From: Candidatus Baldrarchaeota archaeon
GTDB lineage: Archaea > Asgardarchaeota > Baldrarchaeia > Baldrarchaeales > DXJG01
Direction of reading: 5' to 3'
Assembly: GCA_019056805.1 (NCBI GenBank)
Contig: DXJG01000002.1
Span: 166,907 to 198,906 of the forward strand
Length of the DNA stretch: 32,000 nucleotides
The notes under the pieces are model-generated. The model had not been told where the DNA came from, did not search any database, and saw only the letters and a list, made by a program, of their open reading frames with translations. This document shows, one piece after another, positions 5,445 to 12,255 of this stretch. Within the stretch, counting starts at the first letter, position 1; every line of letters starts with the position of its first letter. The translations under genes and the position numbers were made by a program.

Positions 5445-5558
5445 TAGTTACTATATGATCTTCCACATAATTAAGCAATGTTTTATCATGTTTTCGGTTT
5501 TATGTTGTTTATGAAAGGTTTAAAATATGGTTGTTATCGCTGATTGATGGTGCTTTGG

Positions 5559-6914
5559 ATGTCAGAACTAAAGTTACCTAAAAGATACGAGTACATAGTT
5601 TCTGTTTTATCTAGGGTTGAAAGGAGAAGAATTCCTCTCAAATCTGGGTTGGAAGATATTTTTTCAGAAGAATCTGTGGATTGGAGAGTTCGTAGCACCG
5701 TTACTGCTCATGTACTTGGAATTTTACGCAACTTTAGATTGATTGACCAAGCTATTAATTTAACCTTGAAAAAAGGATCTATTCATATGTTTAAACCTGA
5801 ACTTAAGAATATTTTGAGAGTTGCAGTTTACGATATTCATATTAGACGAGCAGTCCCAGCTAAAACCGCAACTATGGTTGCGGTTAATTTAGCAAAGAAG
5901 ATGCTTGGTGATAGCATTGCTCGTTTAGTTAATGCATTATTAAGGCAGATAGAGAATTTTGAAATAGAAAAGGTTTTGGAGAGAGAAGATAAAGCTGAGG
6001 TTTTGGCGTTAAAATATTCTCATCCTACTTGGTTTGTCCGCTATATAATCGAACTATTGGGCGAAGAAGAGGCTATAAAACTTCTAAGTACAAACAACTC
6101 TCCTGCACCAGTTTGGCTACGTGTAAACACATTAAAAACAGAAAGAGATAGGTTAATAAAGGTTTTAGAAAGAGAAGGTACGAAAGTTACCCTGGACTCT
6201 GATCTTCCAGATGTACTCAAGGTTATTGAAAGTAGAAAACCACCAGTTAGATTATCTAGTTTTTCTAAGGGCCTTTTCTATATTCAAGATAAAGCTTCCG
6301 TGCTTGCAGGACATGTCTTAAACCCTAAACCTGGTGAACTTATTGTTGACGTGTGTGCAGCTCCAGGTGGCAAAACTTCACATATTGCTCAGTTGATGGA
6401 AAATGAAGGTAAAATTATAGCAATTGACATATCGAGGCTTAGAATAAGAGCTCTTAAAAATAACATGAAAAGACTTGGTGTAAAAATTGTAGAAACCAAA
6501 GTTATGGATGCAAGAAAAATTCCCGAAAAACTTAAGGTAGAAGCTGATCGCGTAATTGTTGACCCGAGCTGTTCTTCTACTGGAAACTTCCGTTCCAGGC
6601 CTGAAGTCAGATTATGGATTAAAAAGAAAGATGTTAAACGATTTGCTAAGCTTCAATGGGAGATATTAAACGCAGCGGCGGAAATTGTAAAGGAGGGCGG
6701 AACACTGATGTATTCTACTTGTTCTTTAACATTAGAGGAAAATGAACATTTAATTAAAAGATTTTTAGACGAGAAGAATACATTTAAGATTACTAAAGCA
6801 GAACCCTTTATCGGAAATCCCGGATTCAGCGATTTAACAGATACACAAAGACTTTTCCCACATATACACGATACAGAAGGATTCTTCATAGCTAAACTTA
6901 TTAAAATGGGATAA
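5559..6914 (+). CDS. NusB-domain RsmB/NOP2/Sun family RNA m5C methyltransferase
   Basis: N-terminal NusB-like region (LRVAVYDI...VNALLR), YSHPTW, FYIQDKAS, DVCAAPGGKT, VDPSCSSTG and YSTCSL. Likely start is the ATG at 5559. Confidence 0.93.
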   Translation: MSELKLPKRYEYIVSVLSRVERRRIPLKSGLEDIFSEESVDWRVRSTVTAHVLGILRNFRLIDQAINLTLKKGSIHMFKPELKNILRVAVYDIHIRRAVPAKTATMVAVNLAKKMLGDSIARLVNALLRQIENFEIEKVLEREDKAEVLALKYSHPTWFVRYIIELLGEEEAIKLLSTNNSPAPVWLRVNTLKTERDRLIKVLEREGTKVTLDSDLPDVLKVIESRKPPVRLSSFSKGLFYIQDKASVLAGHVLNPKPGELIVDVCAAPGGKTSHIAQLMENEGKIIAIDISRLRIRALKNNMKRLGVKIVETKVMDARKIPEKLKVEADRVIVDPSCSSTGNFRSRPEVRLWIKKKDVKRFAKLQWEILNAAAEIVKEGGTLMYSTCSLTLEENEHLIKRFLDEKNTFKITKAEPFIGNPGFSDLTDTQRLFPHIHDTEGFFIAKLIKMG

Positions 6915-6916
6915 TT

Positions 6917-7075
6917 TTAACGAATCTTATATTTTTCCCTAACCACCGGATCTCCTCTACAATTCTTGCAAAGATAAGCCTTAATTTTCTTCCCTTTTCT
7001 TGTATAGATAACTATTGGTTTCTCTCTCTTATCAGAAAGTATTGCACCGCATTCATAACATTTTCTCCTCGACAT
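6917..7075 (-). CDS. small zinc-finger protein, 52 aa (absent from ORF track)
   Basis: Hand translation: MSRRKCYECGAILSDKREKPIVIYTRKGKKIKAYLCKNCRGDPVVREKYKIR*. Two CxxC pairs; starts 5 bp after the KH gene stop. Confidence 0.7.
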   Translation of the reverse strand: MSRRKCYECGAILSDKREKPIVIYTRKGKKIKAYLCKNCRGDPVVREKYKIR

Positions 7076-7080
7076 CTCTC

Positions 7081-7614
7081 TCACATCCACATCTTGAATT
7101 TTTTCATTTTAATGTCTATTCTCTTGCGTTCTAATTCTTGAATCACTTTATTTTGTGGCTTTCCTCTAATAATTTTTAACAGCGCAATTCTAGCAATATC
7201 TGTATTTTCTGGTTTTCCAAGTATACCAACAGTCCCCTCTTCTTCATTTATTTTTATTCTAGTTTCTGTCAAGGCCTCTATTGCTTCTTTTACTTTTCCT
7301 TTTGTTCCAATAAGCCTTCCTAAAGTTCTCTTAAGCTTGTTTCCACTGCCAACCTCTTCTTTAACATCTATTACCTGTAATACTGCATCAGTGTCTATCA
7401 TTTGAAGTATGTCTAGTTCATCGTATCCCATGGAAATTGCTTCAACAACTTGCTTTACCTTCATAGCCACAAAGGGGTCTTCTGCCTCTATTTTAACAAC
7501 ACCACTAGGTTCCAACGTTAATGTTGTTTCCGTCCTTTCTTCTATTTTTTCCTTTAAATTCCTTAACTTTTCAATCATTTTTTCCTCTATTCTTGCATAC
7601 ATTGCAGGTGTCAT
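7081..7614 (-). CDS. KH-domain pre-rRNA processing protein (Pno1/Dim2/Krr1 family)
   Basis: Motifs KVKQVVEAISMG and GRLIGTKGKVKEAIEALT (GxxG KH loop). Confidence 0.85.
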   Translation of the reverse strand: MTPAMYARIEEKMIEKLRNLKEKIEERTETTLTLEPSGVVKIEAEDPFVAMKVKQVVEAISMGYDELDILQMIDTDAVLQVIDVKEEVGSGNKLKRTLGRLIGTKGKVKEAIEALTETRIKINEEEGTVGILGKPENTDIARIALLKIIRGKPQNKVIQELERKRIDIKMKKFKMWM

Positions 7615-7693
7615 TGCTCAGTCCTCAATTATTAGTTCTTTGAACTCTTAGAAAAATTTATTTTTGGATTTTGTGGTTTTAAGCTGGAACATG

Positions 7694-7764
7694 GGTGGCC
7701 GTGAATATGACCTTTGCACTTGAATTTAAGGACTGTGGGGGTGGTATTGGTGGCCACGGCTACC
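7694..7764 (+). promoter_or_regulatory. long G.U-rich hairpin overlapping the SD and likely start codon of tmcA/Nat10
   Basis: GGTGGCCGTG (7694-7703) pairs with CACGGCTACC (7755-7764). Inner arms 7704-7718 and 7734-7748 pair with several G.U and one mismatch. Confidence 0.45.
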
Positions 7765-10170
7765 GACGAAGGAAAAGTTGAAATTAAAACGTGTTCTGAA
7801 AAATTTTTAAACGGTCTTGAGAAAATATCTGAACTTGCTATTAAAACTGCGATACAAAATAACCATAGAAGAATGTTTGTTTTTTGTGGAAGCGACATAA
7901 GAAGAATTGATGCCGCTTATAAGGTTTTTTCAAAATTTATTGAAATTAAAGGCAACATGCAAGTAAGAGTACTTTACGTTGCAGTGGAGGTTTCTTCTGG
8001 AAAAGATAAAGAATTATATACGGAGTTTAAATCAAGAATAGAGAAGAATTTCAAGGACGTTGAAATTAATGGAATCAGTTTTAAAGATACAGATAACGTT
8101 ATGGGTCAAACTTTTGACGTGTTAGTTTTAGATTTAAATAGAGACCTAAACCCCAACGATCTTGGTCGATTAATTGAAACCGTTAGCGGTGGAGGCATTA
8201 TAATAGCAATAACTCCTCCAATGGATAAATGGTTAGTTTTGAAAACACGATTTCACAAGAAACTTATAACCCCCCCTTGGACGATTGACGATATTCCCGG
8301 TAGGTTTAACAAGAGATTCATAAGGAAACTAAAGGAGCATAAGGGAATTTACATTTTCGACGTAGACGAAGAAATTGCTTTAAAAGTTATTAAGGAAGAA
8401 GTTTCTGATAAAGGTAGGATAACCATAAGTATTCCTGAAGAACATCTGCTACCAAGAGAAGTTTATGAATTAGCTTTAACCCAAGGACAAGTTAGAGCTT
8501 TAAAAGTAATGGAAAGGTTCTTAGTAAGAAAGGAGAAAAAACCAGCTATTGTCATGATCGCCGATAGGGGTCGAGGAAAGAGCGCTGTCGTTGGGATAGC
8601 TATAGCCGCGATAGCACATGAGTTAAAGAAAATTTTTTCCTCAGGTAAAGTTTCTGTTCTTGTAACTTCTCCACAAATAGGAAATGTCAGGACACTTTTC
8701 GAGTTTGCCGTCAGGACGCTTAAAAGATTAGGTTATTCACCACAAGTAAAGAAGCGAGACTACGATATTGAGGAAGTAAGGGCTTCAGGTATCAAAATTT
8801 TTTATGAACCTCCATGGGAGGCAATTGAACGAAAAGCTGACATCACTGCCGTAGATGAAGCTGCTGGCATACCAATTCCCTTACTTTTCCGATTCTTAAA
8901 AAGAGCTAAAAGAATTATTTATTCTTCCACTATTCATGGATATGAAGGAGCTGGCAGAGGTTTCTCTATAAGATTTCTGGGCGGATTAAGAGAAATTAAA
9001 AATATAGAGGTTAACATGGTTGAATTAGAAGAACCCATCCGATATAGTGACGGAGATCCCATTGAACAATGGCTCTATGATGCTCTTCTTCTTGACGCAG
9101 AACCAGCTCAACTTTCAGTAAGAGATATTAAACAAATCAAAAATATGCAAGTCGTATTTAAGAAAGCCGATTTAGACAAGTGGTTTATTAACGGTAATGA
9201 GAAAAAACTGAGACAATTTATTGGCATTTATGTATATGCCCACTATAGAAACCAACCAAAAGATGTAGCTCTTTTAGCAGATGCACCTCATCATGAAGCC
9301 TTCATGCTTGAGACTAAAAACGGGAAAATTGTTAACGCTATCCAAGTAGCCTTGGAAGGAGGATTACCTGACGAAGTCATAAAGGAGATTTATAGCGGAT
9401 TTGAACCAGATGGAAACATAATACCAACAATTGTGGAGAAACATTTCCGAGATACTGAATTTCCAAAACTCAAAGGATATAGAATTGTTAGAATCGCAAC
9501 ACATCCGCAAGTTATGAGCATGGGACTAGGAAGTGAAGGGTTGTCAAAACTTTGCCAAGAAGCCGAAAAGAGAGGACTAGATTGGGTTGGAGCTGGTTTC
9601 GGCGCAACACCAGAACTCCTCCGCTTCTGGATAAAAAATGGTTTTATTCCAGTGCATGTTAGCCCAAGGAGAAATCCCATTAGCGGAGAATATTCTACAA
9701 TAGTAATAAAACCTCTTTCTAAGAAAGCAAAAGAAATTACTAAGTTTATCTTTAAAGAATTTAAAATGAAGTTTGTTGAGTGGTTAAGAGACATACATTA
9801 CGACATGGAACCTGAAATAGCCATGTACATCCTTAATTCAAAATTAGAAGATATATCAGAAAGACTTTACGAGTTAAAGCTAACAGAAAGTCAACAAAAG
9901 CGACTCGAAGCATACGTTAAAGGAGTATTATACTATGAAGTTGTCTGTGATGTAATTCGTGAATTGGTAAAAATGTACTTTTTAGATCATACTTCAGAGA
10001 GAACAAAACTTTCTGAGGGAAAAACATTGTTGCTTATCCTAAAGAGTTTACAAGCAAGAAGCTGGAAACAAACTCTGGATGTTATTAATTTAGAGCCTGC
10101 AGCAGCATATACAATGTTTAGAGCGGCAATAAAGAAACTATACAAAGCTTACATCGGGAAAATAGACTAA
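7750..10170 (+). CDS. tmcA: tRNA/rRNA cytidine acetyltransferase TmcA / Nat10 (Kre33)
   Basis: HRR N-terminus, LGRLIETVSGGG, Walker A ADRGRGKS, DEAA, GYEGAGRGF, YRNQPKD and GNAT RIATHP..MSMGLGS. Start is uncertain (in-frame TTG 7714, GTG 7735/7741/7750). Confidence 0.95.
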   Translation: MATATDEGKVEIKTCSEKFLNGLEKISELAIKTAIQNNHRRMFVFCGSDIRRIDAAYKVFSKFIEIKGNMQVRVLYVAVEVSSGKDKELYTEFKSRIEKNFKDVEINGISFKDTDNVMGQTFDVLVLDLNRDLNPNDLGRLIETVSGGGIIIAITPPMDKWLVLKTRFHKKLITPPWTIDDIPGRFNKRFIRKLKEHKGIYIFDVDEEIALKVIKEEVSDKGRITISIPEEHLLPREVYELALTQGQVRALKVMERFLVRKEKKPAIVMIADRGRGKSAVVGIAIAAIAHELKKIFSSGKVSVLVTSPQIGNVRTLFEFAVRTLKRLGYSPQVKKRDYDIEEVRASGIKIFYEPPWEAIERKADITAVDEAAGIPIPLLFRFLKRAKRIIYSSTIHGYEGAGRGFSIRFLGGLREIKNIEVNMVELEEPIRYSDGDPIEQWLYDALLLDAEPAQLSVRDIKQIKNMQVVFKKADLDKWFINGNEKKLRQFIGIYVYAHYRNQPKDVALLADAPHHEAFMLETKNGKIVNAIQVALEGGLPDEVIKEIYSGFEPDGNIIPTIVEKHFRDTEFPKLKGYRIVRIATHPQVMSMGLGSEGLSKLCQEAEKRGLDWVGAGFGATPELLRFWIKNGFIPVHVSPRRNPISGEYSTIVIKPLSKKAKEITKFIFKEFKMKFVEWLRDIHYDMEPEIAMYILNSKLEDISERLYELKLTESQQKRLEAYVKGVLYYEVVCDVIRELVKMYFLDHTSERTKLSEGKTLLLILKSLQARSWKQTLDVINLEPAAAYTMFRAAIKKLYKAYIGKID

Positions 10171-10175
10171 TCAAG

Positions 10176-10802
10176 GTGATATCGTTGCCTAAAAAATTTA
10201 GAAAACATATATTTTTCGACGGAAAATATGCCGATAAAATTCTAAAAGGTGAGAAAACATCAACAATTAGGGTGGGAAAATATTCGATAAAAAAGGGACG
10301 AAGTTTTTATGTCCACGCTCGAGGACACGTACTCGGTAAAGCAGTTGTAACAGATGTTCAAATAAAAAAATTAAATGAACTTACTGATAAAGATGCAAAA
10401 AGAGACGGTTTTAAAAACAAAAAAGAACTTTTAAAAGCTTTAAAAAAACATTACGGAAAACTCGATAAGGATACCCCTGTAACAATCATAGAGTTCAAAA
10501 TACAAGATAAATTTAAGGAAGAAGTAACTTCCTCTGATTTTGCATATGGTGGGTATAAAGCGACAGAGATAGCAAAACTTGCACTTACTCATAATGTTAA
10601 CTTGTCCGAAAAAGAAAGAGAAATACTCAAAACACTTCTAAATACTGGTAGTATTAGAAAAACCGCGAGACAAATTGGTAATTTAAACAAACGATTTATG
10701 ATCAGAAAAATCTTAAAGAAAGTCTTCAGCAACCTAGTTAAAGAGGGAATTATATCACCAAAAATTAAAAGCTACTACGAAGAAAATAATAAAGAAACTT
10801 AA
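10176..10802 (+). CDS. ASCH-domain protein with C-terminal HTH
   Basis: ASCH signature ILKGEKTSTIR (GxKxxTxR), LTDKDAKRDGF, and an HTH-like tail LSEKEREIL....GSIRKTARQIG. Confidence 0.85.
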   Translation: MISLPKKFRKHIFFDGKYADKILKGEKTSTIRVGKYSIKKGRSFYVHARGHVLGKAVVTDVQIKKLNELTDKDAKRDGFKNKKELLKALKKHYGKLDKDTPVTIIEFKIQDKFKEEVTSSDFAYGGYKATEIAKLALTHNVNLSEKEREILKTLLNTGSIRKTARQIGNLNKRFMIRKILKKVFSNLVKEGIISPKIKSYYEENNKET

Positions 10803-10827: not shown

Positions 10828-11730
10828 ATGTCCATAAGAGAACCAGCAGCCATAGGTTTTTATCCCTTAGACCCTCAAGAAACGTTAAAAGTGATAGAAG
10901 AATCTTATTTAAGCAAACACGGCCCTGGATCCTTACCAAAGGTTAACAAAAACGGAGAAAGAAGAATAGTTGCAGGGATAGTTCCTCATGCAGGATACCT
11001 CTATTCAGGACCTGTAGCAGCGCATTTTTACTATGAACTTGCAAAAGACGGCGAACCCGAAGTTTTTATCCTCCTCGGTCCAAGTCACACTGGTTACCCA
11101 GGCGTTGGAATAATGACAGAAGGCATCTGGAAAACTTCTTTAGGAGAAATATCAATAGATGAAACTCTCTCGAATACTATTTTAAATAATTGTGACCTAA
11201 TACTTGATGCCCCCGAGGCACATGAAGGCGAACATAGCTTAGAAGTTCAACTTCCATTTCTTCAACACCTCTATGACGCAAAATTCAAGATCGTACCTAT
11301 AGCAATAGGCATGACAGACTTTGAATCTTGCCAAGATGTAGGAATAGCAATAGCAAAAGCTATAAAAACGAGTAATAAGGATGCTGTAATAATAGCCAGC
11401 ACAGACATGACACACTACGGCACCTACTATGGATACACACCAGCTGGTGTTGAACCATTAACCAAAGTTTTAGAATGGATATACCAGACGGACAAACAAG
11501 TTATTGAGAGAATTAAAAGATTAGATGGAGCAGGAGTAATAGAATATGTTTTTGACCAAGGCTTAACAATGTGTGGTTTTGCTCCAGTAGCGACAATGAT
11601 AGAAGCCATTAGAAACCTCGGAAAAATTGAACCAAAAGTATTAAAATATGAAACAAGCTTTGGTATTCGAGGAGGAGATGCTACAGCAATAGTGGGATAT
11701 TTAGCGATGGCTTTTTATAGGGCAGTTTGA
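10828..11730 (+). CDS. MEMO1 family protein (AmmeMemoRadiSam protein B)
   Basis: Motifs REPAAIGFYP, VPHAGYLYSG, LGPSHTG, EHSLEVQLPF, ASTDMTHYG, TMCG and VGY. Confidence 0.95.
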   Translation: MSIREPAAIGFYPLDPQETLKVIEESYLSKHGPGSLPKVNKNGERRIVAGIVPHAGYLYSGPVAAHFYYELAKDGEPEVFILLGPSHTGYPGVGIMTEGIWKTSLGEISIDETLSNTILNNCDLILDAPEAHEGEHSLEVQLPFLQHLYDAKFKIVPIAIGMTDFESCQDVGIAIAKAIKTSNKDAVIIASTDMTHYGTYYGYTPAGVEPLTKVLEWIYQTDKQVIERIKRLDGAGVIEYVFDQGLTMCGFAPVATMIEAIRNLGKIEPKVLKYETSFGIRGGDATAIVGYLAMAFYRAV

Positions 11731-11817
11731 AATCAATAACGCGTAATTTAAACCATTAATTACTTAGAAGTTTAATTTCCAAAATAACTGTTAGCTGACC
11801 TAACGGTGAATGAGGTG

Positions 11818-12255
11818 ATGTTATTGACTGAAAAGTTCATTCCAATTGTTAAATCGCCATCTTGGAAACACGGCACAAGAAAAGGGAAAGGATTTAGCAT
11901 CGGTGAGATTAAAGCAGCCGAGATAGATATTAGTATGGCAGTTAAACTCGGTATACCCATTGATAAAAGAAGAAAAACCGTACATGAAGAAAATGTTGAA
12001 ACCTTAAAAAACTACTACCGCGAATTTGCAAAAGAACTAGGGACGACTTCACTTCCTAAAGTTGACAAAAAAATAATAGAAGAGTTAACTAAAGTTCCTG
12101 GTATAAACATTCATGTTGCACGAATACTTGCCAAAAAAGCTTCAATATCTTCCATAGAAGACCTTATAAACAGTGATATCAATGAATTATCAAAGAAAAC
12201 AGGTTATTCGAAAAACAGAATCAAAAAATGGATTTCAGCTGCAAAAGGGGAATAA
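11818..12255 (+). CDS. rpl13e: 50S ribosomal protein eL13 with C-terminal helix-hairpin-helix extension
   Basis: Motifs RKGKGFSIGEIKAA and GIPIDKRRKTVHEENV. Start could be 11806, 11818 or 11824. Confidence 0.88.
   Translation: MLLTEKFIPIVKSPSWKHGTRKGKGFSIGEIKAAEIDISMAVKLGIPIDKRRKTVHEENVETLKNYYREFAKELGTTSLPKVDKKIIEELTKVPGINIHVARILAKKASISSIEDLINSDINELSKKTGYSKNRIKKWISAAKGE

Follow-up and report, generated by a model that had tools for sequence, protein, structure and literature searches.

A YqfB-type ASCH-HTH gene directly behind tmcA in a Baldrarchaeota genome: a probable writer and remover pair for N4-acetylcytidine in RNA

This report concerns two adjacent genes in a 32,000-nucleotide (nt) stretch of DNA from a heat-loving Candidatus Baldrarchaeota archaeon (NCBI GenBank assembly GCA_019056805.1, contig DXJG01000002.1, positions 166,907 to 198,906 of the forward strand; the whole stretch is referred to as the window). 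The first, tmcA, encodes a TmcA/Nat10-type RNA cytidine N4-acetyltransferase, the writer of N4-acetylcytidine (ac4C), and the second encodes a protein (ASCH-HTH) in which an ASCH domain of the Escherichia coli YqfB type is followed by a C-terminal helix-turn-helix (HTH) domain. The two genes probably (estimated probability about 0.6) constitute one unit encoding an ac4C writer together with an RNA-directed ac4C amidohydrolase that is anchored by its HTH. This reading draws on gene order and spacing, domain identity, catalytic residues, family membership, a recurrent linkage of tmcA with ASCH genes and the co-occurrence of both genes across genomes, all of which were observed directly, and on the enzymatic activity and tRNA binding of orthologues described in a preprint (Statkeviciute et al., bioRxiv 10.64898/2026.02.27.708502, February 2026).

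The gene pair and its encoded proteins

The initial annotation, made from the letters of the window, had described tmcA followed 5 bp later by a gene for a YqfB-like ASCH-HTH protein, and the four TmcA domains given below, the TCAAG spacer and the PF04266 match (E 9.5e-20) agree with that description; the strings ILKGEKTSTIRV, DAKRDG, HY and IEFK quoted in it are all found in the translation. The stop codon of tmcA (TAA, 10168-10170) is followed at 10176 by the GTG that opens the ASCH-HTH gene, which ends at 10802, and the gap of only 5 nt leaves no room for a separate promoter in between.

An exhaustive HMMER search with the ASCH-HTH protein yielded 544 relatives, and about 80 clusters (180 to 210 amino acids, aa) cover it from end to end. 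The family alignment (59 sequences) displays the motif GxKxxTIR, a DAxxDGF block, a conserved Tyr and a C-terminal block GSIRxAA..LG...R..VR..LR. The best solved relative of the family profile was E. coli YqfB (9KYF; E 4.9e-9, residues 6-102 of 103); a single-sequence search of solved structures gave nothing meaningful, YqfB being reached by the family profile only. The AlphaFold model of the protein has a predicted local distance difference test score (pLDDT) of 96.3 (92-96 for the HTH), and its top Foldseek matches are YqfB, free and ac4C-bound (9KYF/9KYH; target-normalised TM-score 0.82, root-mean-square deviation 1.9 Å, 29% identity), followed by other ASCH structures. K27, T30, R32, D77 and Y93 correspond to YqfB K21, T24, R26, E74 and Y89 in the profile alignment, and the octapeptide G-x-K-x-x-T-x-R is present as G25-E-K27-T-S-T30-I-R32 (GRKTITIR in YqfB). 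The parallel to YqfB that had initially been drawn from K, T, R and an acidic residue is thus confirmed by profile, fold and aligned residues.

The acidic position (D77) holds Asp in place of the Glu of YqfB, and Asp or Glu occurs there across the family. The substrate-framing His70 of YqfB is not kept; its position is D73 here and Asp in nearly all archaeal members, the clades of the assayed enzymes included, and D73 reads as a family-wide difference from YqfB, not as a defect of the window's copy. K27, T30, R32, Y93 and D77 (Glu in one) are kept in 28 of 28 tmcA-linked one-domain ASCH proteins as well as in the window's protein, and the other linked two-domain proteins keep the same catalytic positions with single exceptions. 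(Note that the locus-search pattern, from a 12-sequence alignment, contained the DAxxDGF block, so that in loci L040-L119 the D77/G78 conservation follows in part from the search itself; the loci found via TmcA, L120-L199, are free of this bias.) The HTH domain, about 80 aa in size, is absent from Pfam, where HTH models gave sub-threshold matches only, and no NCBIfam model matched the ASCH-HTH protein. The isoelectric point (pI) is 10.0 for the whole protein and 11.1 for the HTH core.

The open reading frame at 7714-10170 contains the four-part TmcA/NAT10 architecture in complete form, with every Pfam domain over its cut-off: TmcA_N (PF08351, E 2.1e-49), NAT10_TcmA_helicase (PF05127, E 2.3e-54), GNAT_acetyltr_2 (PF13718, E 3.7e-45) and tRNA_bind_2 (PF13725, E 1.8e-12). 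The Walker A residues R285-G286-R287-G288-K289 are invariant in an alignment of 20 TmcA sequences. The NCBIfam TmcA model NF041296, which is haloarchaeal and lineage-specific, scored 527 bits against a cut-off of 700. Two relatives from the same genus have no start codon at the places of TTG 7714 and GTG 7735, whereas the Shine-Dalgarno-like tract GGGGGTGG and GTG 7750 are conserved in both, which makes GTG 7750, the start chosen in the initial annotation, the likely start of tmcA. An inverted repeat, GGTGGCCGTG (7694-7703) and CACGGCTACC (7755-7764), flanks this tract and the likely start; it is identical in the same two relatives, which are so close that its conservation says little, and it could hide the tmcA start codon within the mRNA.

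The activity of the family has been reported in the preprint of Statkeviciute et al., in which 19 ASCH proteins were tested. All 19 deacetylate tRNA ac4C in vitro, and the GKTR-class archaeal enzymes Afu2ASCH (among the most active), Afu3ASCH, Pku2ASCH and Pku4ASCH also hydrolyse the ac4C nucleoside (bioRxiv 10.64898/2026.02.27.708502). Afu3ASCH, Pku2ASCH and Pku4ASCH carry a new C-terminal domain, 'AAAD_HTH', and the HTH of Afu3ASCH and Pku4ASCH is necessary and sufficient for tight tRNA binding, with no binding to the DNAs tested (same preprint). For comparison with the window, the assayed proteins were matched to sequences by the termini encoded in the cloning primers of the preprint. The N-terminus MKNLKFDG is common to primer Pku4ASCH_F, protein P0012 and the protein of Thermococcus locus L042; the Archaeoglobus proteins P0050 and P0167 start with MKHLEF and end with RGLI, the termini given by the Afu3ASCH primers; and a tmcA-linked ASCH of Archaeoglobus (MERINF...FEVVK) has the termini given by the Afu2ASCH primers. 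P0012 is taken to be Pku4ASCH and P0050 to be Afu3ASCH on the basis of termini and lengths, not of full sequences. P0012 (Pku4-type, 190 aa) matches the window's protein over its full length (45% identity, E 2.8e-43, query residues 10-195); the Thermococcales Pku4-type proteins (P0012 and L042, each 190 aa) are 45-49% identical to it, and the Archaeoglobus cluster P0050 is 37% identical. Full-length homology and matching primer-encoded termini thus place the window's protein, as judged by sequence, in the characterised ASCH + AAAD_HTH family.

Pku4ASCH (Pyrococcus kukulkanii) and Afu3ASCH (Archaeoglobus fulgidus) resemble the window's protein in their two-domain layout (177-190 aa versus 208 aa here), GxKxxTxR motif class and basic pI and are homologous to it over the full length. 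Their genes, however, lie away from tmcA at the loci examined in Thermococci and Archaeoglobi, whereas the present gene lies 5 nt behind tmcA, belongs to an Asgard archaeon (Baldrarchaeia) and is known from sequence and model. E. coli YqfB (PDB 1TE7, 9KYF, 9KYH), the best solved relative by both profile and fold, is alike at the K/T/R/acid/Y positions but has 103 aa, no HTH and no nucleic-acid binding (bioRxiv 10.64898/2026.02.27.708502). Its E74 and H70 are both Asp in the window's protein. The yqfB gene presumably is not adjacent to tmcA in E. coli.

Linkage of tmcA and ASCH genes across archaea

Gene neighbourhoods were surveyed from both sides, starting from ASCH (80 genome loci) and from TmcA (80 loci, 77 assessable). 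In the survey starting from TmcA, the next gene downstream, in the same orientation, was an ASCH gene in 16 of the 77 assessable archaeal tmcA loci, distributed over Bathyarchaeia/Bathyarchaeota (5/8), Nezhaarchaeales/-ota (2/2), Methanomethylicota (1/1), Archaeoglobi (4/7), Thermoplasmata (2/2) and other bins (2/5). By chance, ASCH is expected as the immediate downstream neighbour in about 0.1-0.2% of cases (a rough estimate from 1-4 ASCH genes per genome of about 2000 genes), so the adjacency is not a matter of chance. The linkage, which the initial annotation had proposed to follow across archaea, accordingly extends to several archaeal phyla and is not unique to the window's genome. No downstream ASCH was found in the tmcA loci examined from Thermococcus (5) and Desulfurococcales/-aceae (17), nor in those from Thermofilaceae/Thermofilum, Acidilobaceae, Thermoproteaceae/Pyrobaculum, Nanoarchaeota-type archaea and Sulfolobales.

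Among the loci found through ASCH, one-domain proteins are encoded right behind tmcA in Hecatellales, Methanomethylicota, Nezhaarchaeales, Bathyarchaeia, Nitrososphaerota-labelled bins, Archaeoglobi and Baldrarchaeum yapensis, and two-domain ASCH-HTH proteins are encoded away from tmcA in Thermococci, Pyrodictiaceae, Desulfurococcales, Thermoproteales and Archaeoglobi. After pooling and removal of redundancy, 29 one-domain ASCH genes were linked and 14 unlinked, and among 41 two-domain genes with a judgeable upstream side 5 were linked, 2 lay at a distance of about 1.9 kb and 34 were unlinked. All five linked two-domain genes are from Asgard archaea (three from the window's genus, one from B. 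yapensis and one from another Asgard family). The envelope of the ASCH hidden Markov model starts between -25 and +170 nt from the tmcA stop in the 34 linked non-redundant genes, mostly before the stop or a few bases past it, which indicates that linked genes overlap. No other neighbour of tmcA was conserved outside the genus in the loci surveyed. Looser versions of the association are seen in an uncultured archaeon (locus L108), where tmcA precedes a one-domain ASCH gene and, at a distance of 1.9 kb, a two-domain ASCH-HTH gene, and in an Undinarchaeota bin (L046/L129), where about 2 kb separate tmcA from an ASCH-HTH gene downstream. A search of proteins of 365-2000 aa revealed neither a TmcA-ASCH fusion nor another long one, which is weak evidence, and the longer ASCH proteins from a representative search contained no other Pfam domain.

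The pair of tmcA and a one-domain ASCH gene (in Bathyarchaeia, Nezhaarchaeales, Methanomethylicota, Archaeoglobi and Thermoplasmata, and exemplified by the Archaeoglobus pair with the Afu2ASCH match) is like the window's pair in order, strand, tight junction and catalytic residues. It differs in that its ASCH protein has 105-140 aa and no C-terminal domain and that an overlap of its ASCH gene with the tmcA stop is usual; the window's partner comes from the two-domain clade and is not that pair plus a tail. A short, partly resolved tree of 98 ASCH domains contains three groups, namely an Archaeoglobi-type one-domain clade that is mostly linked, a linked one-domain clade from TACK archaea (Bathyarchaeia, Nezhaarchaeales, Methanomethylicota), and the two-domain proteins, within which the window's protein is sister to Thermococci proteins (Shimodaira-Hasegawa-like approximate likelihood-ratio test, SH-aLRT, 91). 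B. yapensis has its linked two-domain gene in a different subgroup of the two-domain proteins, which also contains a second ASCH-HTH of the window's genome that is not linked to tmcA. Forcing all linked genes into one clade cost 241 log-likelihood units (approximately-unbiased test, p 5e-41), a test weakened by the definition of the group after the tree had been seen. Either tmcA captured ASCH genes repeatedly or the linkage is old and has often been lost, and both point to a functional tie.

Chance neighbourhood without any functional tie has a negligible probability. It would fit the window's other neighbours of tmcA, the genes for RsmB, the KH protein, Memo and L13e, whose arrangement is conserved within the genus only; the ASCH gene, by contrast, recurs in the same position and orientation at 16 of 77 tmcA loci in several phyla, different ASCH subfamilies occupy that position, and tmcA and ASCH co-occur across genomes. 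The locus survey effectively refutes chance adjacency.

The window's genome (G000, contig C17) contains two more ASCH genes about 2.5 kb apart, one for a 113-aa one-domain protein (L002, 1480-1821, minus strand) and one for a 186-aa two-domain protein (L003, 1456-2016, plus strand). Two CxxCxxCC-domain genes and a radical-SAM/DUF1848-like gene are their neighbours. In the sister family (Baldrarchaeum yapensis), tmcA is instead flanked by the genes closest to L002 and L003 on the tree, and ASCH paralogues appear to have swapped places beside tmcA.

Co-occurrence was determined in 201 sampled Asgard genomes, with a clear TmcA defined by E < 1e-25 and a strong ASCH by E <= 1e-10. Thirty genomes from 8 families had a clear TmcA and 18 a strong ASCH; 17 of these 18 also had TmcA, the exception being a genome of 73% completeness, which corresponds to a strong ASCH in 1 of the 171 genomes without TmcA. 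The genomes searched from two TmcA-bearing families (one with 10 genomes) yielded no strong ASCH, and no clear TmcA was found in 19 of the 27 families sampled. ASCH is thus nearly confined to genomes with TmcA but not vice versa, the pattern expected of a consumer of the TmcA product. In one Asgard family (f19; G058, G065, G089, G094, G042 and G071), 2-3 full-length TmcA paralogues of about 745 and about 820-890 aa were present per genome.

The one-sidedness of this pattern also bears on a non-catalytic role, in which ASCH-HTH would be an RNA-binding adaptor that presents substrates to TmcA or a reader of ac4C that does not remove it. THUMPD1/Tan1, the adaptor for eukaryotic NAT10/Kre33, offers an analogy for such a helper. 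The fact that the two genes abut closely or overlap in many lineages would fit a stoichiometric partner, and ASCH is a member of the PUA-like RNA-binding fold (PMC7641849). A helper is nevertheless very improbable: two Asgard families have TmcA without ASCH, so TmcA does not need it, the catalytic positions are conserved in the linked copies (with single exceptions in two-domain ones), and the orthologues are active hydrolases (bioRxiv 10.64898/2026.02.27.708502).

Substrate and role of the ASCH-HTH protein

From the gene arrangement, the protein family and its reported activities we infer the following scheme. The two genes would be transcribed as one bicistronic unit, tying the amount of the remover to that of the writer. 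The ASCH domain would hydrolyse the N4-acetyl amide in the manner of YqfB, using K27, T30 and D77, with R32 as oxyanion hole. The strongly basic C-terminal HTH would hold the enzyme on tRNA or other structured RNA, and since it anchors the enzyme there, ac4C in RNA would be the favoured substrate, acetyl groups that are misplaced or no longer needed being removed; free ac4C from RNA turnover may be a further substrate.

The main rival confines the enzyme to salvage: it would act on the free ac4C nucleoside or nucleotide from degraded RNA, RNA-bound ac4C being no physiological substrate, would yield cytidine and acetate and keep ac4C out of the nucleotide pool, and would be co-expressed with TmcA since more writing means more ac4C waste. 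This is possible, though on the present evidence unlikely. The activity described for YqfB is that of an amidohydrolase of the ac4C nucleoside (PMC6972931), and deletion of yqfB in E. coli leaves RNA ac4C levels unchanged (bioRxiv 10.64898/2026.02.27.708502 and its reference 40). A second 2026 preprint (10.64898/2026.08.01.741249), in its title and abstract, assigns EOLA1 to salvage of free ac4C. The one-domain ASCH proteins linked to tmcA lack an RNA-binding extension, and the one-sided occurrence of ASCH with TmcA fits salvage as well as erasure. A nucleoside hydrolase, however, would have no need of the conserved, strongly basic HTH or of the tight tRNA binding found in orthologues, and tRNA was deacetylated in vitro by 19 of 19 proteins (bioRxiv 10.64898/2026.02.27.708502).

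The HTH could alternatively make the protein a regulator that binds DNA at 7615-7750 while the ASCH domain senses free ac4C, the tmcA operon being autoregulated. By profile and structural neighbours the HTH fold resembles the DNA-binding domains of sigma-70 region 4, LysR and LuxR type (Foldseek with the HTH alone gave no match at E 0.001 or better), and the genus-conserved inverted repeat at 7694-7703/7755-7764 surrounds the tmcA start. The repeat, however, is conserved among near-identical relatives only, and its action could instead be on the RNA. With the DNAs tested, binding by the HTHs of Afu3ASCH and Pku4ASCH was not detectable (bioRxiv 10.64898/2026.02.27.708502), the catalytic positions show the conservation of active enzymes, and 34 of 41 two-domain proteins are encoded away from tmcA, so that the conserved role of the domain cannot be cis-regulation of the tmcA operon. 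A regulator is therefore improbable. Of the coupled module proposed in the initial annotation, the genetic tie of a YqfB-like ASCH to the ac4C writer holds, and the suggested HTH-mediated feedback on the operon finds no support, since the HTH of the orthologues binds tRNA and not DNA and most two-domain genes are unlinked.

Several points weigh against RNA-directed removal as the role of the pair. With RNA ac4C unchanged in the E. coli yqfB deletion, erasure from RNA in vivo is unproven for any ASCH enzyme. Expression of writer and eraser together seems futile if neither is under post-transcriptional control. The location of most two-domain ASCH-HTH genes (34/41) away from tmcA counts on the same side, as does the Asp (D73) at the position of YqfB H70. 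The co-occurrence in Asgard genomes, moreover, may partly reflect shared thermophily, and genomes of kin are not independent. When a complex of TmcA (residues 41-818) and ASCH-HTH was predicted, the score was 0.00, the mark being 0.32, which counts neither way.

ASCH enzymes deacetylate tRNA in vitro, yet deletion of yqfB in E. coli has no effect on ac4C in RNA. The repeated gain or retention of an ASCH gene behind tmcA, in several phyla and with several subfamilies, is independent genomic evidence that the two act in one pathway, and the near absence of ASCH from Asgard genomes without TmcA points likewise. That Asgard archaea have the tRNA-binding HTH form coupled to tmcA speaks for RNA, and not free nucleoside alone, as the substrate, and it provides concrete proteins for testing. 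The enzyme family and its HTH are already known from bioRxiv 10.64898/2026.02.27.708502. The initial annotation knew of no description of the pair as a system; the activity of the protein family had been reported in that preprint, whose main text does not mention the linkage to tmcA, and the EOLA1 preprint (10.64898/2026.08.01.741249) may mention the pairing. What sets the window apart is that a two-domain protein of the tRNA-binding type occupies the coupled position, in an Asgard lineage and from a subfamily unlike that of the one-domain partners. Pairs of a writer gene and a remover gene recur across archaea, and the present pair is a variant of them particular to its lineage; its added value is incremental. 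A bolder and rather doubtful extension is that ac4C is truly reversible in archaeal cells: TmcA and the co-transcribed ASCH-HTH would be writer and eraser matched to each other, and would reset RNA acetylation when, for example, the temperature has changed. The HTH would then be akin to the C-terminal helical tail of TmcA, with both enzymes recognising the same RNAs, and the variety of tmcA-adjacent ASCH subfamilies would reflect selection for the circuit.

Genomic surroundings

Features of the window around the gene pair are listed in Table 1. The G+C content of the window is about 35%. The A/T-rich element upstream of tmcA is the probable promoter of the unit. The Memo-like gene has a ribosome-binding site of its own (GAGGGG) and probably shares the transcript with tmcA and ASCH-HTH; neighbour comparison confines its association with them to the genus. 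The arrangement of the genes for RsmB, the zinc ribbon, the KH protein, Memo and L13e around tmcA is likewise kept within the genus only, so these genes are not parts of a wider module. A scan for sigma-70 promoters and intrinsic terminators, which is ill-suited to archaea, found fewer sites than in shuffled sequence. Among public runs, the stretch was present only in DNA metagenomes (subsurface, marine and vent), no RNA run being listed.

Table 1. Coordinates of the tmcA/ASCH-HTH pair, its parts and neighbouring genes in the window
Feature	Position	Strand	Remarks
RsmB/NOP2/Sun-type m5C methyltransferase gene	5544-6914	+	With NusB domain; upstream of tmcA
Zinc-ribbon protein gene	6917-7090	-	57 aa
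KH protein gene	7081-7614	-	Universal archaeal arCOG04150, Pno1/Dim2-like
TFB-recognition element (BRE)/TATA-like A/T-rich element, putative promoter of the unit	7650-7667	+	Read from sequence; within a block invariant in two same-genus relatives
tmcA, Nat10-type RNA cytidine N4-acetyltransferase gene	7750-10170	+	Frame open from 7714; four Pfam domains
Spacer of 5 nt (TCAAG), tmcA stop to ASCH-HTH start	10171-10175	+	Sequence reading
ASCH-HTH gene	10176-10802	+	208 aa, pI 10.0; YqfB-type (GxKxxTxR) ASCH and C-terminal HTH
ASCH domain (aa 13-109)	10212-10502	+	PF04266, E 9.5e-20
C-terminal helical HTH domain, counterpart of archaeal 'AAAD_HTH'	10560-10742	+	Helices aa 129-138, 145-157, 160-167, 170-189
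Memo/AmmeMemoRadiSam-B-like gene	10828-11730	+	PF01875, E 1.4e-66; 25 nt past ASCH-HTH
L13e gene	11806-12255		149 aa

The surroundings of tmcA (5544-7614 and 11806-12255) consist of genes for RNA modification and ribosome biogenesis. The L13e protein encoded there has its core at aa 8-72, followed by a helix-hairpin-helix domain (HHH_5, E 2.5e-10), which looks like an unusual fusion for L13e.

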